A stretch of DNA of 54,070 nt from positions 1-54,070 of the IMG/VR virus record IMGVR_UViG_3300012964_000006; one strand, 5' to 3'. Position 1 is the stretch's first letter, and each line of letters opens with the position of its first letter. Positions 5,197 to 54,070 of the stretch are shown piece by piece. This DNA is from a virus. Under the pieces are notes generated by a model. That model saw nothing but the letters and a program-made list of their open reading frames with translations, was not told where the DNA came from and did not search any database. The translations under genes and the position numbers were made by a program.

Positions 5197-5199
5197 ATT

Positions 5200-15531: not shown

Positions 15532-15532
15532 C

Positions 15533-27147: not shown

Positions 27148-27247
27148 ATCAGTGGGCTTGGGCGGTCTAGCTAACCACCGACAAGCCGGGAACCCTGTAC
27201 CCGGCGCCCCACATATTTACAGGGCTAACTCTAACAGGGAGAGTGAA

Positions 27248-32338: not shown

Positions 32339-35106
32339 AATCCCCTCAAAAGCCCAAAAATAAAGTCAAAGTAGTCTGGATCGGCTTTGGCAAATGCCGC
32401 CGGGTCTGCCCACATATTTTCCATCCCCATTGATATAATTTCAGTGGCGTACCGTTGCCCCGTAGCCTTATTTAGATATTCCTTGCCCATATACGAACTG
32501 GTAAACTTGTCCCGGCGCGCAACCTCGTGTTTTTCGTAGCTACCCCCTAACCATTCCAGGGTTTCGCCCTTTGTTCGCCGGTCGTAAAACTCCAGGGCTT
32601 TTTGATGGACTCTTGGGTCCATATCTTCTAACCAATGTCCCAATTCGTGAATAGCCGTTCTTTGCCCGTCCCCCTTGCCAAGTACGACGCTGCCATTAAG
32701 GTCATAAAACGCACGGCCCTTACCCCTCGGCTTAATACCAACCGTCCTGCCATCAATGGTCCCTGTGCCAACCATCTTGGAAAATTCCTCGGCTCCGTCC
32801 TTGTACGCGGCCCGCCTGGTCTTATCAAATGTCCCCTCGAATTTTGTTTTTATCTGAGCGGGTTTTTTGACATAGAGAACTTCACGCTGACGAGACAGCA
32901 AACCCTGTTTTATTTCTGTAAGTTGGTTTACTAATGATGAGTGATGTATAACCTTCGCGTCAATGTCGCGGCTCATTTGCCTATATAATTCCCGGTCTGC
33001 GTCTGTCCAATTGGGATAATTATCGTAGAAGTTTCGCTTCTTTTCCCACATAGAATTTAATTCATCATCGGCCGTACTTATTTGCGCCCTCAGGCCCTTA
33101 ATTTCTTTGTCAAGTTTGTCCGGTATCGTTTCAAGTATTTGACTTCTGGCCCGTTGTCCCACATTAGCCAGTGCTTTCATTTGCTGGATCTTTAGTTGCT
33201 GCGCGCGCCTTTCTTCCTTTTCGCCCTGTGCCCTATCCCGCCGCATCTTTTCGTTGACGACTTTTTTATCTAGCGGCGTCTCGACTGCGCCTATGGCCGG
33301 GTGTATTGTCACCATCGAACAACGACAATTCTTGACAATAAACGTATTGCTGATGTATAATTGTTCTATAGTTTGGAGGTCAAAAACGTGTCCAGAAAAA
33401 TCGAAATTCCTAACCTTGATGATTTGATTATTCGATATAAATCCGGCGAATCTATTAAAGAATTGTCGCGCCAAATTGGTATAGGTGGTGGGCCTCTCTG
33501 CCGACGATTTGCTCAGGCTGGTGTGAAAATTAGACACCCCAAGCGCGTCGACGTACCCAACCTCGGCGTCATTGTAGCCAGGTATGCCGCCGGTGAACCG
33601 GAACAAAGACTCGCCAAAGAATACGGTATAACCCGTACTATTCTGCGTCGTCGGTTGATTGAGGCCGGGGTGCCCATTCGTGGCATTAGTGAAGCCAACA
33701 CGATTCGGATGCAAAATATGTCTCCCGGGAATCGCCTGGTTTTGACCGAAGCCGCCCACTCTGCCGTAAGGGGTAAAAAGCGCACCGAGGCCGAACTTAT
33801 CAAGCGGGCCATAACCCGTCAGGAAACCTTGCAGTATGTTACCCCGGCTGAATTGATTTTGATCGAAATGCTCGGGGAGCGCGGTATCATTCTTACTCCG
33901 CAAAAAGCCTACGGCCGGTACAATATCGATATTGCCCTTGATGAATTTCCCGTCGCCGTGGAAGTAATGGGGCATAACGGCGCTTACCGCTTGAAAACCC
34001 TCTCTGGCTACAACCGAAAGAGAACCCCATATCTCCTCGATTCTGGTTGGCACGTGGTCATTGTCCGGGTCGACGGTACGCGCTATTTCATTACCCCGGC
34101 TGCTGCCGATTACATAGTCGCCTTCACGCAAGAACTTGGCCGCAACAAACCCCCTACTAGTCAATATCGGGTGATTGGGGGTAACGGTGAGTTGTTTACC
34201 GCTGTCTATGGTTAGCTCGATGGCTGGTCCATCATAAAAGGACCGAGCCGCCGCAACCAAGCCAGGGGCGATAACACTATTGCCTGGCAAAATACAGTTG
34301 ACGGTTTCTTGCGCTCCCCCGGCCGGATCGCCCGGCTGCATCAAAAACGAGCCGCCCACCTGAAACGGCTGGCTCACCGGAATAGGTGCAAAGAAATACC
34401 GGCTATGGGCTATCAGGTGACTTCGACGCGTTCTCCTGTCTGCCGCCGCTAACCATCGCTTTTGTAGTTCTGGTATCGCTTTTGCTGTCTCCGCCTGTTG
34501 GCTTGCCGCCGCCAGGTTGTAAACGCGGGTCATCTCTGTCCGGGCGATAGCCTCGGACCTGGCGGCAACGCCCGTGACAATCTCCGGCCTGCGCCTGATT
34601 CCCCACGCGCCCGCCCGGGCCTCCGTGCCGAGTATGTCCGTTATGGCTTTCATCGTGTCCAATGGGCTGCGCTGTCCCAGCGTGGCCAGCCTCAGTTGTA
34701 CGTCAATCTGGCCCCGCATCGTGTCGCTGACATTACGGATAAGCGCGGCGCTGTAATCAAACGAGGCGTTCAGTTGCGCCGGGTTGATGACGTTAAACGC
34801 CCCTCCAAGGTCTGCCTGTATGATCGGGTCCACCACGGAGTCGCCGCCAAGTCGCGCCGCCTGGTTAAATGATTGCCGCAGATTGGCGTCAAGCCGGGCC
34901 TGGTACTCGTCAATCATCCGGTTTATGCTCGTCTGCATCTCGCCCATTCGCCAGGCGGCAAATTCGGACGTGGCAACCTGTCCGGCGATTTGATTCCGCA
35001 AATCCTGGAGGGCCGAGATAAGCGCCTTCACGGTGTCATCTTCCAGGGAGACATACCGGCGAATGACCGAATCAAGCGCGGTTTTATACTTCTGCTTTGG
35101 GGTCAT
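32335..35106 (-). CDS. Head morphogenesis / minor capsid protein (Mu F / SPP1 gp7-like) interrupted by an intein, with a C-terminal HExxH domain
   Basis: MuF-like N-domain ending ..ETVN | intein | CRCSMV (N-CRC motif); position after portal; HELGH at 32635-32649. Confidence 0.75.
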   Translation of the reverse strand: MTPKQKYKTALDSVIRRYVSLEDDTVKALISALQDLRNQIAGQVATSEFAAWRMGEMQTSINRMIDEYQARLDANLRQSFNQAARLGGDSVVDPIIQADLGGAFNVINPAQLNASFDYSAALIRNVSDTMRGQIDVQLRLATLGQRSPLDTMKAITDILGTEARAGAWGIRRRPEIVTGVAARSEAIARTEMTRVYNLAAASQQAETAKAIPELQKRWLAAADRRTRRSHLIAHSRYFFAPIPVSQPFQVGGSFLMQPGDPAGGAQETVNCILPGNSVIAPGLVAAARSFYDGPAIELTIDSGKQLTVTPNHPILTSRGFVAAKFLREGDYVIGSSRGNEIARTVDPDNDHVPTRIEEIWGSLSVVAREGFQAVSAVMPHYFHGDGKFIKGNIDIVPAVGFLRSKNDTALPEHFDQNQFSRGNILQGFLTGYGPLDKFGLGALFTPYGRVGGFGQNQAIPGRHILHPNRVGFTNATNGHPGLNQPTTQNSTGYTVFFGESLFRFTGGIPGYNDAEVGYVDALGVSNFHTSLSKSSAERPTTYTNLARQFFNRFAGFISNNQIIKVRNFDFSGHVFDLQTIEQLYISNTFIVKNCRCSMVTIHPAIGAVETPLDKKVVNEKMRRDRAQGEKEERRAQQLKIQQMKALANVGQRARSQILETIPDKLDKEIKGLRAQISTADDELNSMWEKKRNFYDNYPNWTDADRELYRQMSRDIDAKVIHHSSLVNQLTEIKQGLLSRQREVLYVKKPAQIKTKFEGTFDKTRRAAYKDGAEEFSKMVGTGTIDGRTVGIKPRGKGRAFYDLNGSVVLGKGDGQRTAIHELGHWLEDMDPRVHQKALEFYDRRTKGETLEWLGGSYEKHEVARRDKFTSSYMGKEYLNKATGQRYATEIISMGMENMWADPAAFAKADPDYFDFIFGLLRGF
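33332..33361 (+). promoter_or_regulatory. Promoter TTGACA-18-TATAAT for the antisense endonuclease gene
   Basis: TTGACA 33332-33337 (overlaps intein codons VKN), TATAAT 33356-33361, GGAGG 33375-33379. Confidence 0.6.
33388..34215 (+). CDS. HTH-repeat plus Vsr/DUF559-type PD-(D/E)XK endonuclease (homing endonuclease candidate), antisense within the intein
   Basis: GTG 33388 after GGAGG; repeats IIRYKSGESIKELSRQIG / IVARYAAGEPEQRLAKEYG; nuclease core GRYNIDIALDEFPVAVEVMGH..GWHVVIV. Confidence 0.65.
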   Translation: MSRKIEIPNLDDLIIRYKSGESIKELSRQIGIGGGPLCRRFAQAGVKIRHPKRVDVPNLGVIVARYAAGEPEQRLAKEYGITRTILRRRLIEAGVPIRGISEANTIRMQNMSPGNRLVLTEAAHSAVRGKKRTEAELIKRAITRQETLQYVTPAELILIEMLGERGIILTPQKAYGRYNIDIALDEFPVAVEVMGHNGAYRLKTLSGYNRKRTPYLLDSGWHVVIVRVDGTRYFITPAAADYIVAFTQELGRNKPPTSQYRVIGGNGELFTAVYG

Positions 35107-40953: not shown

Positions 40954-41604
40954 CTAATGAGTGATATAAAACGCTCTTTGTTCAAATAGGGCCATCTGCT
41001 CAGGCCCCACTACTCTGTATGCATCAGGTAGGTCTGCTTGTTTGTACACTGGCGGGTTCTCCGTTTCATACCTCATATCATCTAGGGGTAAACTCGCTCC
41101 GACTGTCCAGCCCAGCCCGTCCCGTTTGATAAACTCTGCTCTCCACAAGTTGCCAGTGTAACCACTGTGACAATTCCGGCAGAGCAGACAACATTTGTCT
41201 AATTCCTTCCAGGTTTCGGCAAAATTATTGTTATAAATAAGCGAGGTGGGAGTATGCTTCTTTTCGGCCCGGTAAATATGATGAAAGTCCAACCCTGCCG
41301 TAAATTCCTTGTATCCACACCGCTGGCAACACCCACCGGACAATTCCACAAACTTAACTTTTAGCCCGTTGTTCCGATCCCTGTTGTATTTCTTTGCCCA
41401 CTCCCTATCCCGCTTTGCGTTGTTCTCACAATCAATACAATAACTCCGATACCCATAATTTGTGTTTTGGCCTTCGCCTGGATTCCGCCACCTGTAAAAC
41501 TGCTTTACCGGCTTGAATCGCTTGCACTCGCTACACCATAATTGGCCCTGACTCCACATCTGATTACGGAGCTTTAATTCTGTTGTTGTTAATCTCTTTG
41601 GCAC
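40954..41604 (-). CDS. HNH endonuclease
   Basis: CSECK, CIDCE, CQRCG..DFHHI..CLLCRNCH; GTG start; own promoter and leader. Confidence 0.75.
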   Translation of the reverse strand: MPKRLTTTELKLRNQMWSQGQLWCSECKRFKPVKQFYRWRNPGEGQNTNYGYRSYCIDCENNAKRDREWAKKYNRDRNNGLKVKFVELSGGCCQRCGYKEFTAGLDFHHIYRAEKKHTPTSLIYNNNFAETWKELDKCCLLCRNCHSGYTGNLWRAEFIKRDGLGWTVGASLPLDDMRYETENPPVYKQADLPDAYRVVGPEQMALFEQRAFYITH

Positions 41605-41787
41605 AGTCTCACCCCTATCTCGTAAGCTATGCGCCCGCCGATTTCGGCAAAATAAAAACGGCTATCTTGTCAGACAACCGTCAATGTGCTAGAATGATTC
41701 TAGCGACTGTTGCCTATCTCAGCGGTCGCTCTTTAGCCGGCTTTGGGTGTTCCTGCACCCGGCCGGCTTTCATTTTTGATTGACGGT

Positions 41788-41816
41788 ATTATAGCACAGA
41801 TGTTCTTTTAGTTCAA
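41788..41816 (-). promoter_or_regulatory. Promoter TTGAAC-17-TGcTATAAT
   Basis: Minus strand: TTGAAC = 41811-41816, TATAAT = 41788-41793. Confidence 0.6.
41793..41806. promoter_or_regulatory. LexA-like box AGCACAGATGTTCT in the promoter spacer
   Basis: Minus-strand reading AGAACATCTGTGCT abutting the -10. Confidence 0.45.
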
Positions 41817-41823
41817 CTTTATG

Positions 41824-42138
41824 TTAGTCCGATCTGCTAGATACCTTAACCCCCGGCCGCTTACTCGACGGCAATACCACCCCGTCAACCAGCTTTCCGG
41901 CTTCCTCATCTGGCACCCAGGCCAGGTAATATTGATTGTTCTCTGTCAGTATCCACTTGACGGTATACCGTGGTTTCATCTGCCCTCGCTCGCCCCCCCC
42001 TTGGCCGGCCAGGGTAAAGGAGACGAAACCCCTGGCCGGCTGTCCAAGGAGGCCGCTGATGAAGTCTAAATGAGTACTTACTCGTGTTAATCCCGCTGCG
42101 TCAAATCTTAAACGTTTTAGCGTGTCAAATTCCGGCAT
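41824..42138 (-). CDS. Hypothetical protein
   Basis: 104-aa ORF. Confidence 0.55.
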   Translation of the reverse strand: MPEFDTLKRLRFDAAGLTRVSTHLDFISGLLGQPARGFVSFTLAGQGGGERGQMKPRYTVKWILTENNQYYLAWVPDEEAGKLVDGVVLPSSKRPGVKVSSRSD

Positions 42139-42361
42139 CAGAACGCGTGTTCTGTCCGTCGTCTAAAACCCGAATCGCCCGGGCCAATCCCGGCGCTCGT
42201 TCGATCAGGCCCATTGCCTCTAATTTTAACACGTGATGCTGGGCCGCGCTGCTACTGGCCAGGCCCACGCCGGCGGCAATCTCGCGGCAGGTTGGAGCCC
42301 GGCCCGTATCGGCAAAATGCTCTTTGATATAGGCTAAAACTTGTAAGGTGCGAATTTTCAT
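42125..42361 (-). CDS. LexA N-terminal DNA-binding-domain-only protein (78 aa, no S24 peptidase domain)
   Basis: MKIRTLQVLAYIKEHFADTGRAPTCREIAAGVGLASSSAAQHHVLKLEAMGLIER..RAIRVL matches the LexA wHTH pattern; ATGA-coupled start 42361. Confidence 0.7.
   Translation of the reverse strand: MKIRTLQVLAYIKEHFADTGRAPTCREIAAGVGLASSSAAQHHVLKLEAMGLIERAPGLARAIRVLDDGQNTRSDAGI
42139..42154. promoter_or_regulatory. LexA-like palindrome CAGAAC-GCGT-GTTCTG
   Basis: Lies in the last codons of the LexA-like gene, just upstream of ATG 42138. Confidence 0.45.
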
Positions 42362-42594
42362 TTTATCAGGCCCCACACCTTAAGCTGTTCGTGGCGCTTG
42401 TCCCTCTGTTGGTGCGGAACGGGCCGTTTTTGTTTTTCGGGCTGGAAGATGATCGGCTTATCAAAACTGCCACTGGCCACGCAAATATAGCGACTCGAAT
42501 CCGCCGTAGTACACTGGCAGGGCCAGCTATGGCAAGATTGGCAAACCCCGTTGAATGTTGCGCTTGAACTGGTATCGTCTAATTTTATGTACAT
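42358..42594 (-). CDS. Hypothetical Cys-rich protein
   Basis: 78-aa ORF. Confidence 0.5.
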   Translation of the reverse strand: MYIKLDDTSSSATFNGVCQSCHSWPCQCTTADSSRYICVASGSFDKPIIFQPEKQKRPVPHQQRDKRHEQLKVWGLIK

Positions 42595-42623
42595 AAGCGA
42601 TGACTATGACTAAAACATACGTT

Positions 42624-42842
42624 CTACCCGGCCGGCGGCAATTTATCCAGGTCCACGCCGTCGACTTCCTTTGCCACAAACCGCCAGTTTTTGGCCATCA
42701 TTAGCAAATTGGATAATGCCAATTCGTCGGCCTCGCCCTGGGCCAATGCCTGGCGCAACATTTCATTTTTGCGCTTGATTCCGTTTAGCAATTCTTCCAG
42801 GCGCCTGGCCGCCTCGTCCATCCTGAAGTGATCCTCGCTCAC
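42624..42842 (-). CDS. Hypothetical coiled-coil protein
   Basis: 72-aa ORF; similar in style to 42859..43044. Confidence 0.5.
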   Translation of the reverse strand: MSEDHFRMDEAARRLEELLNGIKRKNEMLRQALAQGEADELALSNLLMMAKNWRFVAKEVDGVDLDKLPPAG

Positions 42843-42858
42843 GTTCCCCCCGTGCAGC

Positions 42859-43044
42859 TTAATGTTTTTCGCCGGTCAGTCTCCGGCTTTTCATCCGCTC
42901 AATCGTCCGAGTTAGTATCCTGACGTTATTCTCGCTGTCTTGCAGTGCGGCCCTCAAGATGTCGTTACGCCGCCTGGCCCTGCATAACAAATCTTCCAGC
43001 GCGGCTATCTCCTCATCCTCTACCGATGTTTGATTTACGATCAT
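42859..43044 (-). CDS. Hypothetical coiled-coil protein
   Basis: ORF trimmed to ATG 43044 (MIVNQTS) with GAAGGGG upstream. Confidence 0.45.
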   Translation of the reverse strand: MIVNQTSVEDEEIAALEDLLCRARRRNDILRAALQDSENNVRILTRTIERMKSRRLTGEKH

Positions 43045-43303
43045 CGTGGCCCCTTCCCCAAAACTCATCGGCCAATTGTTCCGCGACGGCCTGGGCCGTG
43101 GTAATTTCTGCAAGCCGGTTTTCGAGATGGTTTAGGGCTTCGGTCAGGCGGTCGATCCGGTCGAGGAATTGCTTATCCCGCCTGTCAACGTACCAGGCAA
43201 AGATAACCAACAGGGGAAATTGAACTATAATCGGGGTCAGGAGTTCCCATTCAGGCGTTGCCGCCCCTTGCAAAAATGGCATAAATAGTGATATGATGTT
43301 CAT
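43013..43303 (-). CDS. Membrane protein
   Basis: 96 aa, N-terminal TM helices; first gene after the 43.4-kb switch region. Confidence 0.55.
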   Translation of the reverse strand: MNIISLFMPFLQGAATPEWELLTPIIVQFPLLVIFAWYVDRRDKQFLDRIDRLTEALNHLENRLAEITTAQAVAEQLADEFWGRGHDDRKSNIGRG

Positions 43304-43392
43304 AGGCTCTCAGGGAAGCACCTTTTTCCTGTTTGCTCAGGCCCGGGCCGGGTGCGGAAATCACCTGACCCGGGCCGCGTGGTTTAAAGACA

Positions 43393-43429
43393 AAGGGCCA
43401 TACCCCGCTAGCGGTACGGCCCTTTTTTA
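43393..43429 (-). terminator. Promoter-proximal terminator-like hairpin (T-rich on both strands)
   Basis: GGGCC(43395-43399)..GGCCC(43418-43422); TTTTTT on plus, TTTGTCTTT on minus. Confidence 0.45.
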
Positions 43430-43448
43430 CGCCTGTTCTTTTCTGGCA

Positions 43449-43462
43449 AGAACGGGTGTTCT
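43449..43462. promoter_or_regulatory. LexA-like box AGAACGGGTGTTCT
   Basis: GAAC-N4-GTTC core; immediately downstream of the minus-strand -10; extra half-site TGTTCT at 43433-43438. Confidence 0.5.
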
Positions 43463-43468
43463 GTTGTT

Positions 43469-43497
43469 ATAATATTATGTTTTATGCCTATTGTCAA
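43469..43497 (-). promoter_or_regulatory. Promoter TTGACA-17-TATTAT (leftward operon)
   Basis: Minus strand: TTGACA = 43492-43497, TATTAT = 43469-43474. Confidence 0.55.
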
Positions 43498-43557
43498 GTT
43501 AAGGTTTTTGGCAGGTTGACAATAATAAAACCCGTCTAAAACTCGTGGTAAAAACTA

Positions 43558-43586
43558 TTGACAACTGACTATATATCGGATATAAT
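43558..43586 (+). promoter_or_regulatory. Perfect consensus promoter TTGACA-17-TATAAT (rightward)
   Basis: TTGACA 43558-43563, TATAAT 43581-43586, 45 nt upstream of ATG 43632. Confidence 0.7.
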
Positions 43587-43631
43587 ATAGTCAATCAACA
43601 ATAATTAATTAGTTTCTCACGGAGGATAAAA

Positions 43632-43847
43632 ATGTTTAGCTTTCTCAAAGGTTCTAAGGTTATCGCCCCCAGTGGCAAGACGCTAGAAATTCTTGAAGTT
43701 GAGGTCGAGGTCGTGAAAGACACGGCCGGGCAGACACACAATAACATTTCCTATACCGTCTCCTGGAACGGCGGCGAACCGGAAACAGCCTTCCCTTCGG
43801 CCGTCAACGGCTTGGCCCAAATTCCGGGTAGCCAGGTAATCAAATGA
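43632..43847 (+). CDS. Hypothetical protein
   Basis: 71-aa ORF with GGAGG SD. Confidence 0.6.
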   Translation: MFSFLKGSKVIAPSGKTLEILEVEVEVVKDTAGQTHNNISYTVSWNGGEPETAFPSAVNGLAQIPGSQVIK

Positions 43848-44074
43848 TTGACCAGGTTATCAGCCAGGAGGTTGAGAAGGCCCTGGAGGCGATGCATCCC
43901 GTCGGACAAAAATACCGGACCGTGTTGGAGCGAATGGCCCACCAGGTGGCCACGGCCGCCGCTCACGAGGCGTTACTTGGTTTGAAATCCAGCCAGCAGG
44001 TGGCTGATCTGTACGGGGTTAGCCGCCAGGCCATCAATACCCGGGCGGCCCGGCTCCGTTCCCGGCGCGGTTAG
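43844..44074 (+). CDS. HTH DNA-binding protein (ends at an in-frame TAG; see extension)
   Basis: VADLYGVSRQAINTRAARL HTH; ATGA overlap with the previous gene. Confidence 0.6.
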   Translation: MIDQVISQEVEKALEAMHPVGQKYRTVLERMAHQVATAAAHEALLGLKSSQQVADLYGVSRQAINTRAARLRSRRG

Positions 44075-44173
44075 TTTGGTTGGGAAGTGGGGGCCGGTGC
44101 CTGGGCGTTCACCCCGGAGGAGGTAGAGGCCCTGCGGCCTGGGCCGGCCGGCCGGCCACGAAAAACCGCATAG
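44075..44173 (+). other. In-frame coding-like extension after TAG 44072-44074
   Basis: Same frame reads FGWEVGAGAWAFTPEEVEALRPGPAGRPRKTA then TAG; the terminator follows 14 nt later. Confidence 0.5.
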
Positions 44174-44186
44174 CCCCCCGAATCAA

Positions 44187-44215
44187 AAAGCCCTCGCTTG
44201 GGGGCTTTTCTTTTT
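44187..44215. terminator. Bidirectional intrinsic terminator between convergent units
   Basis: AAGCCC-TCGCTTG-GGGGCTT with TTTTCTTTTT (plus) and TTTTTGATT (minus). Confidence 0.65.
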
Positions 44216-44269
44216 GCCGCTGTCAATGCCCGCAATCTGACAGTATGGTGACATTCGAGTGACATCAGC

Positions 44270-44716
44270 CTAACTCCCAGTACACCCGATATACCATTGC
44301 TCGGCGCTAAACGGAGTTTCCCGGGCCAATTCGATAGCATCATCCGGTTTAATGTCGCACAGTTTGCGCTGGGTAATTCCCTCCAAAACCTCTTTGAGGG
44401 TGAGCCACACAAAACCACTGTCCGTATGTATGGGCATTGCCCTATCTGGAGAGTACCCCAGCGCCAGGGCCGATTTTATGCCCTGGCGGTAAAGCTCCAG
44501 TGTTTCGGCATAATCGGCCGGGTCGTTGGGGTATTTCCATCGCCACCTGGCCTGGCGATTTTCCCACTCCCTAGCCTGGACCAAGACAGAGCCGTAAATA
44601 GCTTCCCCGCCTATCAATAATCCCGGTATTATGGGCAAATTGGCAAGCGCCCCTTTTAGCTTCTCGGCCGCCGCATTAAGTTTTTCGGAGTCGACTTTTA
44701 TTTTTACGGTTGCCAT
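44270..44716 (-). CDS. Hypothetical protein
   Basis: 148-aa ORF; last gene of the wrapped early operon. Confidence 0.6.
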   Translation of the reverse strand: MATVKIKVDSEKLNAAAEKLKGALANLPIIPGLLIGGEAIYGSVLVQAREWENRQARWRWKYPNDPADYAETLELYRQGIKSALALGYSPDRAMPIHTDSGFVWLTLKEVLEGITQRKLCDIKPDDAIELARETPFSAEQWYIGCTGS

Positions 44717-44732
44717 ATTTTTATTATACCAC

Positions 44733-45137
44733 CTATCCTAACACAATACACGTTTCCCCCCTCTGCTGTCCCGGCCATCTCTCCCTAACTACCGGCCTGC
44801 CCCCCGGTCCTGTCAATACCGGCAAGCCCTCACCCTCGGGGCATTTCGGTACATCTTTCCGCTTGCCCAATGCCATCCCCGCCGGCAGCTTCCAGGGTGG
44901 CCTTTTTGGCGCCCCCCGGTATTTATCGCCGCCGTTCTGCTCTGCCCTCTGCTGTCGCAGTTCGACCGCCCGGGCATTGTGGCAGGTGCGGCAATCGTCC
45001 CGAAATTGGATCCGTCCGGTTTTTTTGCTCCGGCCCATCGTCGGGAAGTAGGCCGTAGTCAGCGGGTAGGCAACGCCGCAACGTGAACAGATTTTGGTAG
45101 TCTGGTCTTGGTTGTCCTGGTCCTGGTTGGTGGTCAT
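44733..45137 (-). CDS. Zinc-finger protein
   Basis: CSRCG..x..CRTCH. Confidence 0.55.
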   Translation of the reverse strand: MTTNQDQDNQDQTTKICSRCGVAYPLTTAYFPTMGRSKKTGRIQFRDDCRTCHNARAVELRQQRAEQNGGDKYRGAPKRPPWKLPAGMALGKRKDVPKCPEGEGLPVLTGPGGRPVVRERWPGQQRGETCIVLG

Positions 45138-45857
45138 TTATTCCATCCTCCGAAATTGAATGACCCACACGTGGGGGTTGTCCTGCCAGGTGCAGCCGGG
45201 GCGCTTGCCGTTGATGGATTGCCACAGGGTTTGAAATTCCGGCCGGTATACCGTCCCGTTAGTCGCGTCGTGCCAAGCGGATACCCCCTCCGCCTTAGCG
45301 TCCTCCTCGCTGATGTCCTGCAACCGCTCGACTCGGACGCCGGTAATCTCCAACCTGAGTCGGCAGGCCCAGCGGGGCATAAAAATAGACGGCTGCCATT
45401 TCTTGGTACGCGCCGCCGCAAGCCACAGGTTAGCGGCGTCTTTGGTGTTTTCAATGGCCACAAATTCGTTATCGGCCCGGTAACGGATACCATCAAGGCC
45501 CGATTCTAATTCCTCGGTTCGCCAGGTTTCCCGCACCCAAAGCGAATCGCCGGGCTTGCCGTAGGAACATTTTACCGGGATAACGTTTAATTCATCGGCT
45601 TGTCGTCCAACAAACCAATGATACAGGCCGGGGTTTTTACGGTAGTCTCTTTTGTACTTGGTGGCAATATAATGGTCATTTGGGATCAAGCCGCGATAGC
45701 CCAGCGGTGGCCCGAATCTAGCAACATTGGCAAATGTACCATGGTAGTTATTGACTTCTTCCAGGCCATCTAGCCGCCTGGTATTCGTTTTTCTATCCTC
45801 CAATATCGCCCGGACCATCGGCCCGCTCATCAAAATAGGTCGCTCGATTCTGTCCAT
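45138..45857 (-). CDS. ASCH/PUA-like domain protein (tentative)
   Basis: N-terminal RPILMSGPMVRAILEDRKTNTRR pattern common in phage ASCH-like proteins. Confidence 0.5.
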   Translation of the reverse strand: MDRIERPILMSGPMVRAILEDRKTNTRRLDGLEEVNNYHGTFANVARFGPPLGYRGLIPNDHYIATKYKRDYRKNPGLYHWFVGRQADELNVIPVKCSYGKPGDSLWVRETWRTEELESGLDGIRYRADNEFVAIENTKDAANLWLAAARTKKWQPSIFMPRWACRLRLEITGVRVERLQDISEEDAKAEGVSAWHDATNGTVYRPEFQTLWQSINGKRPGCTWQDNPHVWVIQFRRME

Positions 45858-46363
45858 TATGCCGCCTCCCTCAATCGCTGCTCAATCATCTTAATCGCCT
45901 TGTCTATCAACCGCCGGCCACCGCCGGCGTTTACTGTCCCAATCGCCTCGGCAATACGGGTTTGATGCCACTTACCCTTGCCGTTCTGGTACTGCTCAGG
46001 GTTGGCCAGGATCAGGTTAACCCCGGCCGTAAATTGATCGTTTGGCCGCTGCCTTGCCGCCTCGATATGGTGATAGTACGGCTCCCGCTTAATGTCCACA
46101 TCCCCGAATAACTGGGGGCAGTTCTGGTATAGCCAGGGCCATCCTTCGGCCGGGTCGGCTGGACAGTCGGCAAATGTCAGGCCGGCCGCTTTAATGACGG
46201 GCTGGACATCGGCCGGCGCTCCCTCGTTTTGCAAGGAAAACCCAACCGGCTCAATTGCAAACCTAATCCCTGGCCCCTCAATCGTCAACACGTCACCTAT
46301 TTCTATTTCAACCTCTACCGGCTTTCGTCCCGGAAGGTGCAATAATCCATTTAATTTGTCCAT
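45857..46363 (-). CDS. Hypothetical protein
   Basis: 168-aa ORF. Confidence 0.6.
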   Translation of the reverse strand: MDKLNGLLHLPGRKPVEVEIEIGDVLTIEGPGIRFAIEPVGFSLQNEGAPADVQPVIKAAGLTFADCPADPAEGWPWLYQNCPQLFGDVDIKREPYYHHIEAARQRPNDQFTAGVNLILANPEQYQNGKGKWHQTRIAEAIGTVNAGGGRRLIDKAIKMIEQRLREAA

Positions 46364-46638
46364 TTGCGTTCCCCTGCTGTATAATCGGCCACGGCGGTAA
46401 GAATTTGCGTTCCCCGCCCCCGCCGTGGCCGTTTTGGTTGCGGCGGGTTTTTTATTACTAGTAGTGCTGTGTTTACAAACTTTAGCTCTTGCCCGCTGTT
46501 CCGCCCGTCCTGTCGGAGGGGGTACAAGCCTGTCAATTCAGGCGCCGGTTTCTCACCGGCGAAGGCACCCTCTGGTAATTCCACCAAAGAGGGGAATGGG
46601 TTTCAGGGTTGCCCACGCCCTACATTACCAATAGTTCC

Positions 46639-46914
46639 TTAATCGTCCGCTTTGGTCAGAATTTTCAGGCCCATTGAGGTGTAGAATGAAACGAGTCGCT
46701 CTGCGTCAATCCCGGCTTCTTTCGGAACCGCCTCTATCCCTATGTCCCCACCATACCCGGTATCCCGTATTTCAGAGATGGCTAATGTCAAAAGTCTTTT
46801 TGCTTTCCCCTGCCCTCTATATTCAGGGTGCACAAAAAGGCCGTAAATCAAAGCGGAGGACTCCCCCACTTCAAAGTAACACCATCCAAACCGAGTCTGA
46901 ATAAAATCTTCCAT
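46639..46914 (-). CDS. Minimal GNAT-like acetyltransferase (91 aa)
   Basis: LFVHPEYRGQGKAKRLL (motif A R/QxxGxG/A); ATG 46914 with GGAG upstream. Confidence 0.5.
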   Translation of the reverse strand: MEDFIQTRFGWCYFEVGESSALIYGLFVHPEYRGQGKAKRLLTLAISEIRDTGYGGDIGIEAVPKEAGIDAERLVSFYTSMGLKILTKADD

Positions 46915-46998
46915 AAAGTCTCCACTTAATTCTTGTTCACTCTGCGTGGGTGGTGGTCCTTTCCCACCCCGCCCCAGCGGCCTCAAGCGGCCGGGGCG

Positions 46999-47232
46999 TT
47001 AAATCATTAATCTCCAATACTCCCCACCCGTCACCAGCCCTCGCCACGTCTCGCCGTTCGGTATCCACCCGTCGAGCCACCTGGCCCCGTCCAGTACAGC
47101 CAGATAGACGCGCTCCGGCAAATTCCATTGTTGCCAAAACATCACGATCAGCGGAAATTGCCAGCATAGCCGGCGGTCGTTGTCGGCTATGACCAGTTCA
47201 AGCGAGGCGGTTAGGGTGACGATGTGTTTCAT
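46999..47232 (-). CDS. Hypothetical protein
   Basis: 77-aa ORF. Confidence 0.5.
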   Translation of the reverse strand: MKHIVTLTASLELVIADNDRRLCWQFPLIVMFWQQWNLPERVYLAVLDGARWLDGWIPNGETWRGLVTGGEYWRLMI

Positions 47233-47357
47233 TCCCGGTATCCCATAATCTGACGTCGGCTCCTGGCATACTGGACGACCGCCAAGGCGACCAGGAGCAA
47301 CATAAACCCGCCGCCACCGCCACAGAGAAGAAAAATAAAGACAAAGACGTTAGTCAT
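47229..47357 (-). CDS. Small membrane peptide (42 aa)
   Basis: ORF trimmed to ATG 47357 (MTNVFVFIFLLCGGGGGFMLLLVALAVV). Confidence 0.4.
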   Translation of the reverse strand: MTNVFVFIFLLCGGGGGFMLLLVALAVVQYARSRRQIMGYRE

Positions 47358-47631
47358 TGCCCCGCTCCCGTATGCCGTTCTTTTCCAGCAACCGGCGGTA
47401 CCGTTCCGGCGAAAGGTAAAATGTTCGTCCTCCACCGTCCTTAAAAATCAATTCTCCATCCTCGGTCGTCTTGGTGGTCAGGATCGCGATGGTCCTGAAT
47501 AGCAGGACAACCCCGCTTCTGACGCGATGCCCATAACGTAGTTCAATTTCGCCATTGCGGACAAGCGTCACCCAGGCCCGGATTGGGCCAATACCCTTCT
47601 GGCGGTAGTCGGTAACGATATAGCCGGTCAT
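47350..47631 (-). CDS. Hypothetical protein
   Basis: ORF trimmed to ATG 47631 (ATGA overlap with the upstream gene). Confidence 0.5.
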   Translation of the reverse strand: MTGYIVTDYRQKGIGPIRAWVTLVRNGEIELRYGHRVRSGVVLLFRTIAILTTKTTEDGELIFKDGGGRTFYLSPERYRRLLEKNGIRERGND

Positions 47632-48209
47632 TGGCTCACCCTCACTTTGTGTACTCGCTTGTGTGCGCTGAGCTGGTAACGGTTGCCAAACGTCACCCCG
47701 CAAACATTGCAGGTTACGACCGGCAGCGCCGCAGGTTCTGGCAATTGCGCCGGCTGCACTCGCTCGATTCGTAAAGCCGTCTCGCTCTTGTCGCTGGCCG
47801 TCTCGCTGGCCCTGGCTGCCTTCGCTTCCTTGCCAGCAACCAGCGAGTCGACCTGGCGATACAAAAAGCCCAGCAACGCAATAGCGACGGTCGGAAATAG
47901 CGCATACGTCCAGGCTGCCACGGCTGCCACGCTCAGCGTAAACTCAGGAGCGAGGTAGCCAACATTCATTAGCCCACTTGCGATAACAAAAGCGAAATAG
48001 CCGGCCCACGCGATTCGCTGCGTCTTTTCCCACCTGGTAAAATACGCCGCCACAATGATAGCCATTTCGACCGCCACGGCATACGGCAACCCAAGCCAGG
48101 CCGTCCACAAAGACGGCTCAAAACTGGCAGCGTAGGCGGTGACGTGGACAATCGTCACCAGTCCGAAGGGGACCATTGAACCGATGATCCATTTACGCCG
48201 GTTGTCCAT
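47628..48209 (-). CDS. Multi-pass membrane protein with a C-terminal classical C2H2 zinc finger
   Basis: 4 TM helices, then CNVCGVTFGNRYQLSAHKRVH (47649-47711) = C-x2-C-x3-F-x5-L-x2-H-x3-H; start ATG 48209. Confidence 0.6.
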   Translation of the reverse strand: MDNRRKWIIGSMVPFGLVTIVHVTAYAASFEPSLWTAWLGLPYAVAVEMAIIVAAYFTRWEKTQRIAWAGYFAFVIASGLMNVGYLAPEFTLSVAAVAAWTYALFPTVAIALLGFLYRQVDSLVAGKEAKAARASETASDKSETALRIERVQPAQLPEPAALPVVTCNVCGVTFGNRYQLSAHKRVHKVRVSQ

Positions 48210-48459
48210 CGTCGGCCCCCTGCCTCGCCAATTTCTCGGCAAAATCATCCATCTCCAGGTAAGACACCCCCCGGTAATAATCGTCAGGCCCATCACTCTT
48301 GGGACAATCGGGGTTTCGGCATACGCCCCAAACGGATGACCCAGTCAGGACGCAAACCTCAAACGGATGACCCTTGCAGCATATCCCGGTGTATTCGTCG
48401 CCGTCTGCTATTTCCCCGGCGGTGATGATCTCATTATTCTCAATTTTAGCCGTTAACAT
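48193..48459 (-). CDS. Hypothetical Cys-rich protein
   Basis: 88-aa ORF. Confidence 0.55.
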   Translation of the reverse strand: MLTAKIENNEIITAGEIADGDEYTGICCKGHPFEVCVLTGSSVWGVCRNPDCPKSDGPDDYYRGVSYLEMDDFAEKLARQGADDGQPA

Positions 48460-49342
48460 CGTCGGCCTCCGTGTACGCCCTAAAGATGTCAGTCGCCATC
48501 CTTCGGTACTGCCTGGCCAGCCGCTTCCAGCATATCGCCCAATCCCGGTTGACGTCGGCCCGGGCTAATTCCTCGGCGTGTTCCTTGACAAGTTGCGAAT
48601 CCTCGTCGTTCACATACCGCCACCAGGCCGATACCATCGTCTGTTGCGCCCGGAACAGTTCAAGCGGCGATGTATCAAAGCCGGTCATACCTGCTACGTC
48701 CTCAAACAGCCGTTCCAGCCGGTGCTGAATAACCTCTCCCAACGTGCCGGTTTCCATTGGCTGTTCTGGTACGTCAACCCCCCTCATCATTTCGTCCAAC
48801 GCCGCCCCCACTCCGTTCCCCACCTGCGGCCGGATTGCCTTAATCCCGGCCACAAACCGGGCCACGAGCGCCGCCAGGTTATTGGCTAATTCCTGGGTGT
48901 TACTGAGCCGTGCCAGGTCGTTGGACCTGGTTTGCACCAACCCATAATTTTCCTCCGCGGCCATTTCCAGCGCCGCCGCCCGCTGGGTTAGTTGCTCGTG
49001 CAGCGTCGCCGCGTTGACCAAGGCCAGGTCATACGCCTGCTTCAATTCGGCATAGATTCGGCGTAGCCGTTCGTTTTCGGCCTGCAATTGCTCGATTTCC
49101 GCAATCAGGACCGGAATGTCGGTACGGGCAGCGATAATAAAAGCGGTATCCGAATCGGACGGAGGAGTACCGCCACCCTCAAAATCTACGGTAGAGCAAT
49201 CAAAAATAACCGTTTTATCGCCGTCGCTGGATTCTATCCACCAACAATCCTCCGCGCTGATTCGTTGGCTTTTTGCGTTCCACGGCCCCGGCGTTGCCGC
49301 CTCTGCCATTGCCCTGATTCTTTCAAGCTGCTTTGTGTTCAT
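48446..49342 (-). CDS. Ead/Ea22-like protein
   Basis: N-terminal ..IRAMAEAATPGPW.. plus long coiled coil. Confidence 0.55.
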   Translation of the reverse strand: MNTKQLERIRAMAEAATPGPWNAKSQRISAEDCWWIESSDGDKTVIFDCSTVDFEGGGTPPSDSDTAFIIAARTDIPVLIAEIEQLQAENERLRRIYAELKQAYDLALVNAATLHEQLTQRAAALEMAAEENYGLVQTRSNDLARLSNTQELANNLAALVARFVAGIKAIRPQVGNGVGAALDEMMRGVDVPEQPMETGTLGEVIQHRLERLFEDVAGMTGFDTSPLELFRAQQTMVSAWWRYVNDEDSQLVKEHAEELARADVNRDWAICWKRLARQYRRMATDIFRAYTEADDVNG

Positions 49343-49676
49343 TGTGTCTCTCCTTTTTCAAGTGATACATAAAGTTTAGTCTGTCTGCCAAAATTTCAAT
49401 ACGCCTGTAAAACCACTTCACCGGCAACCCCCTGGCCAGCGTTGCGGCGGCGGCCTCATCACCCATTCGCAGCGCCCGAGCCGGGCCGATGTAGCGTAGT
49501 TTCCAAAAGATATAGTCAATCAAACAATCCGGCTCTTGTGTCAATTTCCGCGCATACTGTGGAACGTGGTGGTACAGATCGCACGTGCCCGGATGCATTG
49601 GGCAATGAAAGCACAGGACCGCGCCGGGGTCGGGGATAAGTTGAATAGTGCCGTTTGCCTTGTGCCGGATGGTCAT
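49323..49676 (-). CDS. Hypothetical protein
   Basis: 117-aa ORF. Confidence 0.55.
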   Translation of the reverse strand: MTIRHKANGTIQLIPDPGAVLCFHCPMHPGTCDLYHHVPQYARKLTQEPDCLIDYIFWKLRYIGPARALRMGDEAAAATLARGLPVKWFYRRIEILADRLNFMYHLKKERHNEHKAA

Positions 49677-50341
49677 ATAACCGCCTTACCTGGCCGGTAG
49701 GACCAAACCCCCGGCAGTAATACCAATTGATGCCCGGTCCCAGCATTGATATAATCCACGCCGGCTGTGATACTCTCCACCTGCTGAGTCGGGTGTTTTA
49801 CGAGGGTCGTACCATCCAGGCTATCGGCCCACGTCCAATGGTCAAGCATTGCCGTGCCGGATTGCGACCGGCCCACGTGGACCCACAACCCCCGCCGTTT
49901 TGCCTCTAGCGCCAATTGCTGGCCCTCGTACCCTCGCTTGTGGTCATCATCACCGCCGATGAATAGGCAATCAATCTCTGACCACGGAATGTCATCAACC
50001 GTCATCCCGTTTTGGGTGACGAAAGTCGTAGGATAGCCGTAAAACCGAGGAATATGCCCGTATCGCTCGAAGTCGGCTAACGTTCCCTCGCGGTCAAAAG
50101 GCCGGTCGGGTACGACTATTCCGAGGCAGGTTGCCCGATACGGTTGCAGCCGTTCCAGCCAGCGAATCCATTTTGGCTCTGACCATTGATTAGTAAACCG
50201 GCTGTTATCAAATATCCACCAACACCCAAGTTCTAGCGCCTCGAATTGCCCCCCCACCTGTTTAGCCACATTGAAAATACAGCCAAAGTGGACCGGGTCA
50301 TTAAGGAAATGTTGGGGCTTGGGTGACAGGTATATCGTCAT
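49673..50341 (-). CDS. Hypothetical protein (weak resemblance to TGT/DpdA-type TIM-barrel transglycosylases)
   Basis: WIFDNSRF.., VVPD, LFIGGDD.HK, ADSLDGT spacing recalls DpdA/TGT motifs; not verified. Confidence 0.5.
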   Translation of the reverse strand: MTIYLSPKPQHFLNDPVHFGCIFNVAKQVGGQFEALELGCWWIFDNSRFTNQWSEPKWIRWLERLQPYRATCLGIVVPDRPFDREGTLADFERYGHIPRFYGYPTTFVTQNGMTVDDIPWSEIDCLFIGGDDDHKRGYEGQQLALEAKRRGLWVHVGRSQSGTAMLDHWTWADSLDGTTLVKHPTQQVESITAGVDYINAGTGHQLVLLPGVWSYRPGKAVI

Positions 50342-50664
50342 AACCCCGCCCTCACCAGGTCGTCAACCGACTCGGCCACAATCGCAATCCCGCCGGCCGC
50401 TTCGACCGCTGCCAGGAAGGCCGCTTGAAGGTCACTCACCTGCCCACGTCGGCCGGGGCGTTTGCACTCTACCGCATAGAACGTTCCCCGGTTGGTGCAG
50501 CCGATAATATCAGAGCTGCCCGGTACATCCGTAAAGCGAAAGAATCGCCGCTTGCCCTGGTACTCATTCACCTGGGCGCCGTTGTTGATGCGAATGGCGA
50601 TGTGACCGCGTAGCCTTAAGTAGTCTAAACAGGATCGCTTGACATCGTTCTCTGATGCGCTCAT
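50338..50664 (-). CDS. VRR-NUC domain nuclease
   Basis: CLDYLRLRG..GSSDIIGC..FYAVECKRPG..Q..F pattern. Confidence 0.75.
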   Translation of the reverse strand: MSASENDVKRSCLDYLRLRGHIAIRINNGAQVNEYQGKRRFFRFTDVPGSSDIIGCTNRGTFYAVECKRPGRRGQVSDLQAAFLAAVEAAGGIAIVAESVDDLVRAGL

Positions 50665-52922
50665 TATGCCGCCTCTCCAAATAGGGAGTATTGCCCCTCG
50701 GTTGCCATCGTTTTTAGTGCGACCTCTGCCGTTTTGCCCTCTGCCCGGGGAAGGGCATTGACCGCCAGGTAGACCGGGTTAAGGTCCAACCCCACAAATC
50801 GCCGGCCCAGGTTGCGGGCGACCTCGCCGGCCGTACCGCTGCCACAAAAAGGATCAAGGGCGATTGCCGGGACGGTTGGGGCTGTTTTGTTTCCGGCGAC
50901 TCGGGTTGTCCACAGGTACGGCTTGATTTCATCGGCCGCCAGGACAAATACCGCCCGGTGCAATTCGGGAATATCTTTGTTCTCCGCCACTGCCGCCAGT
51001 TTGTCATACCGCTTCTGAATCAGGTCTTGCCGGCGGCGCTTGGTTGGGTTGGCGGTACGGTAGCAGGTACAGGATGGTTGCCAGCCGGTGGTAATGGGCT
51101 GCTTATATCCCGGCATTGTTCCACCAGGGCCGCCCCTCGCTCCGTGCTCCAAATCGTGTTGCCTGTCGGTACTTCGCCAATCGCCAACCCTTGCGGTTTC
51201 CACCACCCTCACCCACCCGGCCCCGCACTTCGGGCAGCACCCCCGCGCACTCGTACCAGCCAAAACGCACGGCTCCACGAGCTTTGTGGGGAAGGTGGCA
51301 AAGTGGGCGCCCGGGTACGCTTCGGTGGCAATGGTCCAAATTGTGCGGCGATTGCGATGCCCACTAAAGACTTTTATCCCCGGTGTATTGCTTTCGTTAC
51401 CAGGTCGCCCAGCTCCGTTAGTCTCTTTTTTGCCAACGTGAAACGCGCTGTTGTATCGGCCGGCGTATTGCGGATCCGCGCTTTCCCTTACCGCCTCTGC
51501 ATCATAAAAATACCGTTCCTGCTTCGTCATCAGAAACACGTACTCGTGCGCTTTCGTCGGCCGATCGTCAACCGATTCGGGCATTGGATTCGGTTTTGCC
51601 CAAATAATCGTTGATCGGCAAATCCAGCCATCTTCCATCAAGGCCCGCTTGACCAGATCGGGTATACCTAATTCCTGTTTCGCCCTGGTTGCGTTTGACA
51701 ATCGTTTGGCTTTGTCGTATAATTCAGCATAACGAACAAGACTACCGAATTGATTGGAGATAAACAAATGTCTTACGGAATTGACAGTAATCTTGATAGC
51801 CCCATCCATCAAAGAGAGCGCGAAATGCTCAGGGGTGGCTTTAGTTATGCGGAAATTGCGCAAGCCCTGGGGAGTAAACACAAGAGCATTGCTGAGCGTA
51901 ACAGGTTGGTCTATAAGATCGACGTCCGCCAGGCTTTTGCTGACAGAATCAGGCGCGACGGTGTCCCTTGCCGGCTGGAAGTCTCCGACAGCTTTGGTTA
52001 CTGGTTTAGTGGATTCTTCGACGGCGAGGGGCATATTGGAATTTATAGCAGGCAAAGGGCAGATAGGTACATCGAGCGAAGATTGTCCATTCAAATTATC
52101 ATCCGAGACGACGACGCTGATGTTATTCATTCCATCAGGGATAATCTGAAGGTCGGTATTGTTTATGACAATGGCGGACACGGAAGAACTAACCCTAACA
52201 CTACTTTCAGGGTTGAGCAGATTAACGACCTGGCAGAAATCATTGTCCCTTTGTTTGAAAAGTATCCGCTTCACACTAAGAAAGCGCGTGAATTCGCCAT
52301 CTGGAAGGACATTGTTGGGCTTCAATACACCGTCACTATGGGCGGATATAGTCAACGCGCATCGGCCTCCGATGAACATAACGCCATTTTTGATAATGCC
52401 CTCAAGTTGATTAGCGATATTCGCACCTACCGACGATGACGGCTTATCCCTGAAAGTCCGGTCATCATTGCCGGCCGCTTTCGTTGCCGCCGCGCTTCGG
52501 CCGTTTGGGGCGGTGGCATAGGAATCCCCAATGTTAAGCCAGAGCGTTGCCTCGGGCCGCAGCACTCGCCACACTTCACGAAAGATATTGACAATGTGCT
52601 GGATAAATAAGCCGGGTGTTGGTTCCAGGCCCAGGGAGCCGCGCCAGGCGTGGCAGTGGATACAGAATTGACCAGAATCAGCGGTTTGTCCGATAGCGGC
52701 AGCGGCGTTATGTTTGGCCCCGGTGTTAGTTTGCGGCACTTGATTGGGGTGATGAGCCAGTCCAAGTTGCCCCCACTCGTGCTGGCAATCTTCCCGCCCG
52801 TCCCAAATCATAGGCGTAATTCCGTAGTCCCTTAAGCCCCACTAATAAGGCGGACTAGTCACTACACAGTGTACTGACTCGTCCGCCAAAGGGATGCGAA
52901 AGCTATTAGCGTGAACAATCAT
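50664..52922 (-). CDS. DNA methyltransferase (beta-class N4/N6) carrying an in-frame TAG and a ~250-codon in-frame insertion
   Basis: ATG 52922 with AAGGAGG SD: MIVHANSFRIPLADESVHCVVTSPPY-TAG-WGLRDYG..GLEPTP..LNIGDSY..[insert]..IIWAKPNPMPESVDDRPTKAHEYVFLMTK..HFATFP..DPFCGSGT. Confidence 0.7.
51695..51723 (+). promoter_or_regulatory. Perfect consensus promoter TTGACA-17-TATAAT for the LAGLIDADG gene
   Basis: TTGACA 51695-51700, TATAAT 51718-51723, GGAG 51756-51759. Confidence 0.65.
51768..52439 (+). CDS. LAGLIDADG homing endonuclease (single-motif) with N-terminal HTH
   Basis: GYWFSGFFDGEGHIGI (LAGLIDADG motif); ATG 51768. Confidence 0.8.
   Translation: MSYGIDSNLDSPIHQREREMLRGGFSYAEIAQALGSKHKSIAERNRLVYKIDVRQAFADRIRRDGVPCRLEVSDSFGYWFSGFFDGEGHIGIYSRQRADRYIERRLSIQIIIRDDDADVIHSIRDNLKVGIVYDNGGHGRTNPNTTFRVEQINDLAEIIVPLFEKYPLHTKKAREFAIWKDIVGLQYTVTMGGYSQRASASDEHNAIFDNALKLISDIRTYRR
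52842..52844 (-). other. In-frame TAG codon inside the methyltransferase
   Basis: Minus strand ..TCC? no: ..AGT CCG CCT TAT TAG TGG GGC TTA AGG GAC TAC GGA = S P P Y * W G L R D Y G. Confidence 0.85.
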
Positions 52923-53496
52923 CCCGCCCTCCTTTCTGCTCAGATTCCTTGATAAAGTCTCTGTTGATATTCTTGGTACTGTGGACCCAGTTGTGGCAGT
53001 CCGGGCAAAGCAAAATGAGGTTGTCTACATCGGCCCTTAGTTCCTTCACCTGAAAAGATACAATGTGGTGAATGTGGAATCGGTCCCTATTTCTGGCTAT
53101 AGCCCCACACCGCCGACAAATACCCCTGTCGCGTCGCCACACGGACAAGGCGGCCTTTTTCCATTCCCTGGAAGCGTAAAAACCTTGTCTTTCGGCGGTT
53201 ATGCCACCCTTCCAGTTTGGTACTTCTGCCCCCCTGCGCCCGTACATTGGGTTCTTTTTTCCATTGGCCCCCCAATGCTTAACGGCCCTGGTTTCTGATA
53301 TAGTACGGGTTGGTATTTGGTGCTTTTGGAGAAAATAGAGGATATTGTTTTCGATGCAGCCAAAATCATCCGCGATGTCTTTGGCTGACCTTTGCTTTAT
53401 AACATATTCGTTGTAGAGCCATTCCCGATTCCAGTAAGGCTTTTCTGTTCGCCAGTGTTCGCCCTTAACGAATCTACCTGTGATTTTGTCCGGCAT
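52906..53496 (-). CDS. HNH homing endonuclease
   Basis: CRRCG..FHIHHIV..NLILLCPDCHNWVH; start at ATG 53496 (MPDKITG) downstream of its own promoter and leader; maximal ORF runs to 53700. Confidence 0.75.
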   Translation of the reverse strand: MPDKITGRFVKGEHWRTEKPYWNREWLYNEYVIKQRSAKDIADDFGCIENNILYFLQKHQIPTRTISETRAVKHWGANGKKNPMYGRRGAEVPNWKGGITAERQGFYASREWKKAALSVWRRDRGICRRCGAIARNRDRFHIHHIVSFQVKELRADVDNLILLCPDCHNWVHSTKNINRDFIKESEQKGGRDDCSR

Positions 53497-53655
53497 AGCA
53501 AAACGCCCCTTACCAAGTTTGCCATCGTTGCCTAGACGAATGGCGGGACGTGAATCCACCTGATAAGGGGCGCTTTGCCCACAATGAGTATTGTGTTTTT
53601 CGATGGCGTCTAAAAAAGCAAAACGCCCCGTGGTCCATTCGTCTAGGCACTTACC

Positions 53656-53684
53656 AGTATAACACAGTTCGGCCGGAATTGCAA
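53656..53684 (-). promoter_or_regulatory. Promoter TTGCAA-17-TGtTATACT for the HNH gene
   Basis: Minus strand: TTGCAA = 53679-53684, TATACT = 53656-53661; -10 and leader are homologous to the 3268-3296 promoter. Confidence 0.5.
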
Positions 53685-53696
53685 TACCCTGTACTA

Positions 53697-54013: not shown

Positions 54014-54070
54014 TGGCGGTACTGCCTCGCCTCGTAGGTTATTACCGTGGCCATTGTCAGGGCTACGATA
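53948..54070. repeat. Direct terminal repeat (copy of 1..123)
   Basis: Identical sequence. Confidence 0.95.

Follow-up and report, generated by a model that had tools for sequence, protein, structure and literature searches.

An amber codon lies in frame within a small regulator gene of a phage-like genome, and the question that it raises is whether the ribosome is meant to pass this codon, whether the gene has been broken by it, or whether the base that creates it was miscalled. The DNA analysed here (the window) is a complete phage-like genome of 54,070 bases, with a GC content of 54% and a terminal overlap of 123 bp, in which PHROG matches identify replication, recombination, head, tail and packaging genes. 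Its TerL is at most 47% identical to that of phages of Proteobacteria. An earlier note, made from the letters of the window, had described an ORF that ends at a TAG and a frame that runs on for another 32 codons to a further TAG, and the sequence bears this description out (Table 1). As explanations it had offered either short and long isoforms produced by readthrough or an amber lesion, and it had treated the codon as one of a pair with a second in-frame TAG, located in a DNA methyltransferase gene.

Table 1. Features of the regulator locus and of the other loci discussed, in coordinates of the window.
Feature	Position	Strand	Remarks
Terminal direct repeat	1-123 / 53948-54070		123 bp
Antisense ORF pair, first ORF	27152-28060	+	About 300 codons
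Antisense ORF pair, second ORF	27167-28045	-	About 300 codons
Head-morphogenesis (Mu F-like) gene	32335-35106	-	923 aa
HNH-endonuclease-like gene	40954-41604	-
HNH-endonuclease-like gene	44733-45137	-
HNH-endonuclease-like gene	52906-53700	-	Overlaps the start of the methyltransferase gene by 17 nt
Repressor-like gene	42125-42376	-	LexA_DNA_bind / phrog_362
Leftward promoter	43469-43497	-	Near consensus, 11/12
Imperfect inverted repeat	43553-43574 / 43585-43606		22 nt, 77% complementary
Promoter of the two-gene module	43558..43586	+	TTGACA, 17-nt spacer, TATAAT; 12/12 sigma-70 consensus matches
Upstream gene of the module	43632..43847	+	71 aa; TGA stop overlaps the regulator ATG (ATGA)
Regulator ORF as in the window	43844..44074	+	76 codons and TAG, ending ..RLRSRRG; identical to JGI's own gene call on the window contig (P0001)
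In-frame TAG of the regulator	44072..44074	+	A at 44073 private to the window contig; wild-type TCG (Ser77)
Extension	44075..44173	+	32 codons, FGWEVGAGAWAFTPEEVEALRPGPAGRPRKTA, and TAG at 44171-44173
Intrinsic-terminator-like hairpin	44186..44209		A-run 5', T-run 3'; AAAAGCCCTCGCTTGGGGGCTTTT then CTTTTT
Convergent gene	44270-44716	-	Ends 60 nt beyond the terminator hairpin
Interrupted methyltransferase gene	52922..50664	-	N6_N4 DNA methyltransferase; ATG at 52922
In-frame TAG of the methyltransferase	52842-52844	-	TAT TAG TGG

By the arrangement of the locus, the regulator comes second in a small operon that has a strong sigma-70 promoter and a terminator of its own. The first gene of this module has no Pfam or PHROG family match, an identical copy of its product is present in Logan/ENA assemblies, and a small ORF occupies the same place in the related contig L001, where the orthologous module has the same layout of promoter and 5'UTR. 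The hairpin does lie just past the second stop, as had been noted, at distances slightly shorter than those first given: about 12 nt (instead of 14) separate it from the second stop, and about 111 nt (instead of 113) from the first. Its proposed bidirectional character is in keeping with the convergent minus-strand gene, the end of which, at 44270, makes the terminator able to serve both strands. The terminator-like hairpin would then close both the regulator module and the convergent minus-strand operon.

Upstream, the imperfect inverted repeat brackets the module promoter from the -35 element to +1 and could be an operator. The L001 promoter is also flanked by half-sites, resembling ATTGACAA and TAGTCAAT, at a different spacing. 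The repressor-like gene to the left belongs to an operon that runs leftward, away from the regulator module, and a leftward promoter close to the consensus lies between the two. This divergent layout of repressor-like gene and regulator module looks like a genetic-switch region, though no integrase or recombinase was found among the PHROG matches for 30 genes or among the Pfam labels of the genes called in identical contigs.

A run of 32 open codons carries no significance by itself, and several other genes of the window are equally open past their stops. That the extension is more than a chance opening follows from its codon usage, from relatives that read straight through it, and from the best-conserved residues of the family lying inside it. 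Its codon-usage score of 0.30 bits per codon is at the level of real genes. A homology search returned two orthologues, one of 118 aa and the other of 119 aa; both align without interruption over 98-100% of the read-through sequence (SRRG-X-FGWEVGAGAWAFTPEEVEALRPGPAGR across the first stop) and carry Ser at the position of the TAG; in the DNA of the orthologues (contigs L001 and L002) the codon at this site is TCA and TCG. When the window was compared with L001 and L002 by the Nei-Gojobori method, synonymous differences were saturated (pS 0.77-1.0), and pN fell from 0.28-0.31 before the TAG to 0.16-0.18 after it, where pS was 0.94-1.0. Between L001 and L002 themselves, omega was 0.12 before the TAG position and 0.10 after it. 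Judged from these substitution rates, the extension is under purifying selection, and the coding signal, whose absence in the relatives the earlier note had named as a refutation, is present.

The same conclusion about length was reached on a larger set of proteins. In a profile search of 1.8 billion representative proteins, the regulator family comprised about 99 representatives, nearly all of 105-130 aa, with matches that reach profile positions 113-117; just one member, the window's own ORF, ends at profile position 83. When 40 members were aligned, each of the 39 relatives ran across the TAG column with a sense residue or a gap, so that the question whether homologues cross this position is answered in the affirmative: intact homologues have 105-130 aa and none of the 39 ends at the first stop. 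The TAG column itself falls in a variable, indel-prone linker of the family alignment, and two of the five nearly invariant family columns, G79 and W87, lie past it. The relatives that could be used came from a protein cluster look-up and from Logan/ENA contigs. Searches of IMG/VR viral contigs, JGI metagenome contigs and GTDB genomes gave no relative of the regulator, and the GenBank phage collection gave none either, by DNA or by protein, so that no cultured phage in that collection carries it.

The part of the extension that reads ..FTPEEVEAL.. had been taken for the C-terminal part of a helix-turn-helix domain, and profile matches that cross the stop agree with this. These weak matches come from the read-through protein and not from the 76-aa form; they are to Pfam HTH_17 (PF12728) and to phrog_66, 'excisionase and transcriptional regulator': HTH_17 over residues 50-96, across the TAG, with E = 0.18 and 12.5 bits (cut-off 27), and phrog_66 over residues 9-97 with E = 7e-4. 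Among the 40 aligned family members, 20 match HTH_17 at E <= 0.01, with a best E of 3.5e-9. An AlphaFold2 (AF2) model of the orthologue P0002, built on a 57-sequence alignment, has a pLDDT of 91.9; a model built from a 2-sequence alignment was discarded as unusable (pLDDT 51.6). In the P0002 model, helices at residues 2-18, 28-52, 57-64 and 68-82 all precede S84, the residue equivalent to the TAG, which follows directly on the recognition helix. Past S84 the model places a short strand at residues ~87-88 (below the 3-residue cut-off), a strand at 94-96 and a helix at 98-103, and the pLDDT of this extension region is 92-96. In the window, the extension accordingly holds the wing, a beta-hairpin (FGWEVGAGAWAF), then the last helix (TPEEVEAL), and finally a basic tail with the conserved pattern LRPG..GRPxK.

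The model has the topology of the MerR-like winged helix-turn-helix (wHTH), in which a beta-hairpin wing and a C-terminal helix come after the helix-turn-helix, and the predicted structure places the regulator in the MerR-like/HTH_17 fold class. The best Foldseek matches in the PDB were RacA (5i44), BldC (6ama), pSK1 Par (8csh) and mycobacteriophage Pukovnik Xis (4j2n), over 50-56 columns, with probabilities of up to 0.99, TM-scores per target of 0.57-0.70 and weak E-values (0.14-1). A sequence search of the PDB returned calmodulin and designed-repeat proteins, which were judged spurious. The helix-turn-helix, the beta-hairpin wing and the short C-terminal helix are shared with BldC, RacA, the DNA-binding domain of pSK1 Par, Pukovnik Xis, D29 Gp36 and RdfS, and the MerR-like and excisionase-type wHTH proteins named here for comparison are those without an effector domain. 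The regulator family differs from them by an additional N-terminal two-helix hairpin of ~50 aa and by the conserved LRPG..GRPxK tail. Small phage and mobile-element proteins of the MerR-like class are reported to control transcription or recombination through multimerisation on DNA (PMC5859096, PMC12266134, PMC11963761). Since no integrase was found in the genes searched, the regulator is probably not an excisionase, and the wild-type protein would be a small transcriptional or architectural DNA-binding regulator.

That the TAG is private to the window contig emerged from a comparison with other assemblies of this phage. Clustered at 90% identity, the 76-aa ORF falls together with a 109-aa protein (P0222) that is the read-through product of the window with Ser77. 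P0222 is carried by four other contigs, namely those of ENA ERZ27227668, Logan SRR15532675 and Logan SRR6436091 and one more, presumably from SRR15532676, where the same phage occurs. At the DNA level, the ENA contig (L003, from ERZ27227668) covers positions 43496-54070 and 1-226 of the window (10,575 + 226 nt) with 1 mismatch, one contig of SRR6436091 (L004) covers 41479-47520 (6,042 nt) with 1 mismatch, and another contig of SRR6436091 (L005) covers 3060-15605 (12,546 nt) with 0 mismatches. The sole difference in the ~25.4 kb of DNA thus compared is at 44073, where the window has A and both L003 and L004 have C (TAG versus TCG). TCG and TAG are a single-base step apart, and the rest of the regulator gene is identical. 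In addition, 13 large proteins from elsewhere in the genome have exact look-up matches in those assemblies.

The assemblies also agree in genome length. The JGI assembly (the window; 54,070 bases with a measured terminal overlap of 123), the ENA assembly (54,088 bases, overlap taken as 141) and the Logan assembly of SRR15532675 (53,977 bases, overlap taken as 30) each reduce to a genome of 53,947 bp, an equality that holds if the ENA and Logan overlaps are, as assumed, the k-mer overlaps of the assemblers, the 123 bp being the one measured value. The direct repeat at the ends of the window probably arose as an overlap in the assembly of a genome that is circular or circularly permuted.

These comparisons point to an ordinary nonsense substitution or a base-call error, seen in this one assembly, as the nature of the TAG at 44072-44074. 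Of the two options first proposed, the amber lesion is the one that fits, independent assemblies of the same phage carrying TCG (Ser). The wild-type gene would encode a 109-aa phage DNA-binding protein composed of an N-terminal helical hairpin, a MerR-like/HTH_17 wHTH and a basic GRPxK tail, and in the window contig a C-to-A change at 44073 would have turned Ser77 (TCG) into amber (TAG). A stop of translation directly past the recognition helix would leave the N-terminal helices and the HTH in place but cost the protein its wing, last helix and basic tail. Conservation and the structural model both suggest that the resulting 76-aa product is most likely inactive or defective in DNA binding, because these parts and, with them, two of the five nearly invariant columns are lost. 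The codons downstream of the TAG are still intact, we propose, because the mutation is too young for decay.

This account resembles that of a classical amber nonsense allele in a phage gene, with a sense codon one step away, the wild type in sister genomes and an intact frame downstream; it differs in that the allele was found in a metagenome assembly and is not a selected laboratory mutant. Judged from the assemblies, there is about an even chance that the A at 44073 is a real and recent nonsense allele of the phage population in that sample, and under this reading we infer that the base call is real. Nonsense changes make up 3.3% of random substitutions and 5.9% of C>A/G>T changes, which would make such an allele mildly unexpected as a neutral mutation, and selection would normally act against a nonsense mutation in a conserved gene. 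The competing explanation is a consensus or sequencing error, in which the phage of the sample has TCG and the A was miscalled, for example at low depth or through oxidative C>A damage; we regard this as a serious contender, somewhat short of an even chance. C-to-A is a typical artefact of oxidative damage, and the A is the lone difference from otherwise identical assemblies of the 53,947-bp genome, with the 76-aa product on one contig against the 109-aa product on four. A change that destroys a conserved gene also fits an error at least as well as it fits a real mutation, the share of nonsense among random changes (3.3-5.9%) being equally low for both. On the other side, consensus substitution errors are rare in such assemblies, the window contig closes at the same genome length as the others, and no further error shows up in ~25 kb of compared DNA or in protein look-ups that match exactly over ~6,500 aa; the closure and the lack of any other error argue for good depth and a low error rate.

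Explanations in which the ribosome passes the TAG fare worse. Programmed readthrough, giving isoforms of 76 and 109 aa, would agree with an open, coding-like extension that stops just short of the terminator; it is extremely unlikely, given that the same phage has TCG in four contigs, the orthologues TCA or TCG, and all 39 relatives a sense residue or a gap, and that the short form would come without the wing and the conserved residues. With the stop absent from every other copy of the phage and from every relative, the proposal of short and long isoforms does not hold, and as a conserved mechanism programmed readthrough is, on the sequences compared, already refuted. The Q-beta A1 protein offers a likeness, in that a stop is followed by an in-frame coding extension. 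In readthrough systems such as this the stop is conserved and both products function, whereas the stop of the window is private to one contig and its short product lacks essential parts of the domain. The RNA 3' of the TAG has no structure beyond that of shuffled sequence (MFE z-score +0.51), and Rfam gave no match with E below 0.4 in the region of the regulator TAG. Both in-frame TAGs do sit in a T-TAG-T context, as had been pointed out; for the regulator this context carries no signal, because the flanking T's were already present in the ancestral GGT TCG TTT. A gene-60-like hop from the GGT at 44069-44071 to the GGT at 44078-44080 was also considered and was set aside as needless, the wild type having a sense codon at the site.

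A different case for decoding comes from the second in-frame TAG, which directly follows motif IV (SPPY) of the methyltransferase. The gene has a strong Shine-Dalgarno sequence at its ATG and an intact N-terminus of 26 codons before the TAG; past the TAG, the frame is open for 726 codons and the motifs are intact (..VVTSPPY-stop-WGLRDYG..). All homologues examined, ~120 matched to the N-terminal 168 residues and the ~60 closest full-length ones, have SPPY[W/F/Y]GLRDY without a gap, so that the methyltransferase TAG is an extra codon and not a substitution. The independent ENA assembly has this TAG unchanged, and SRR15532675 shows the truncated call of 715 aa again. The two TAGs differ in kind, that of the regulator being a private substitution and that of the methyltransferase an inserted codon common to the assemblies checked. 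The methyltransferase TAG may be an older lesion of the clone or a stop that is decoded or bypassed; all assemblies are one clone, and no closer relatives exist. As pure speculation, the SPPYW consensus of the family would be recovered exactly if the P-site tRNA-Tyr slipped by +3 on UAU-UAG-UGG. A TAG at 40954-40956 had been tried as the methyltransferase TAG and was rejected: it lies between two neighbouring genes that share a frame, an HNH endonuclease gene and, after it, a separate gene that starts at an ATG of its own. At residues about 170-410 the methyltransferase contains a central insertion of ~240 aa with a different composition (..GIIKNGVMFIGGRCALTISAHSDGVLKPNN..); several distant relatives, P0244 and P0255 among them, have the insertion too.

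On the strength of the methyltransferase TAG, one may suppose that the TAG of the regulator is a real amber allele that is partly decoded, a host or other factor suppressing UAG at a rate that gives some full-length regulator, so that both the regulator and the methyltransferase stay functional. The presence of the methyltransferase TAG in every assembly checked, with open codons and intact motifs beyond it, agrees with this, as does the position of the regulator TAG in a variable linker column, where almost any residue should be tolerated. We nevertheless consider it improbable: the phage has no tRNA gene and uses TAG as an ordinary terminator, no other copy has the regulator TAG, which is therefore not a maintained feature, and the assemblies are a single clone, so that the shared methyltransferase TAG says little about age. 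In E. coli, moreover, UAG is poorly suppressed when a U comes next. That the host decodes UAG at a useful rate through a natural amber suppressor, or that the ribosome passes these particular UAGs, is in our view very improbable; if true, the regulator and the methyltransferase would still be made at full length, with the TAGs serving as valves that set expression according to the host. The methyltransferase TAG is the sole observation that keeps the scenario of host suppression alive.

Reassignment of TAG throughout the genome was rejected on its use as a terminator, on the lack of a tRNA and on a small gain in coding density. About 20 of the 77 called genes (about 26%) end in TAG, and ARAGORN found no tRNA gene in the window, hence no suppressor with a CUA anticodon there. 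In our own gene call, coding density rises from 86.4% to 86.8% when both in-frame TAGs are read (a gain of 0.36%), compared with the gain of >10% that serves as the criterion for recoded phages on contigs of 5-100 kb (10.1101/2021.08.26.457843). A suppressor tRNA is also missing in about 60% of true recoded phages, which makes its absence weak evidence when taken alone (10.1101/2021.08.26.457843). With code 15 phages, in which TAG encodes Gln (Borges et al., 10.1101/2021.08.26.457843; Peters et al., PMC9523058), the window shares in-frame TAGs inside recognisable phage genes. It differs from them in having two such TAGs only, in the regulator and the methyltransferase and none in a structural or lysis gene, in its GC content of 54%, and in a regulator TAG that is not even fixed in the phage.

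For annotation, these results mean that the gene is that of a 109-aa protein interrupted in the window contig, and not that of a 76-aa regulator. As a mechanism the regulator TAG matters little: a small regulator is either knocked out by it or wrongly assembled at one base. The two in-frame TAGs that had been treated as a pair are now separated, and the methyltransferase TAG alone is a shared property of the phage. As a by-product, the analysis describes a so far uncharacterised family of small proteins, with about 100 representatives, that combine an N-terminal helical hairpin, a MerR-like wHTH and a GRPxK tail.

Several observations were made elsewhere in the window. All three HNH-endonuclease-like genes lie on the minus strand, and one extends into the 5' end of the interrupted methyltransferase gene (Table 1). 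In an identical Logan contig, the Mu F-like head-morphogenesis protein has a weak match to Pfam Intein_splicing; its PHROG matches fall in two separated blocks, and this pattern suggests that the protein may hold an intein or another inserted domain. Finally, two antisense ORFs cover the same DNA inside a long minus-strand structural block, where the gene callers of other assemblies pick a plus-strand ORF of 270 aa.
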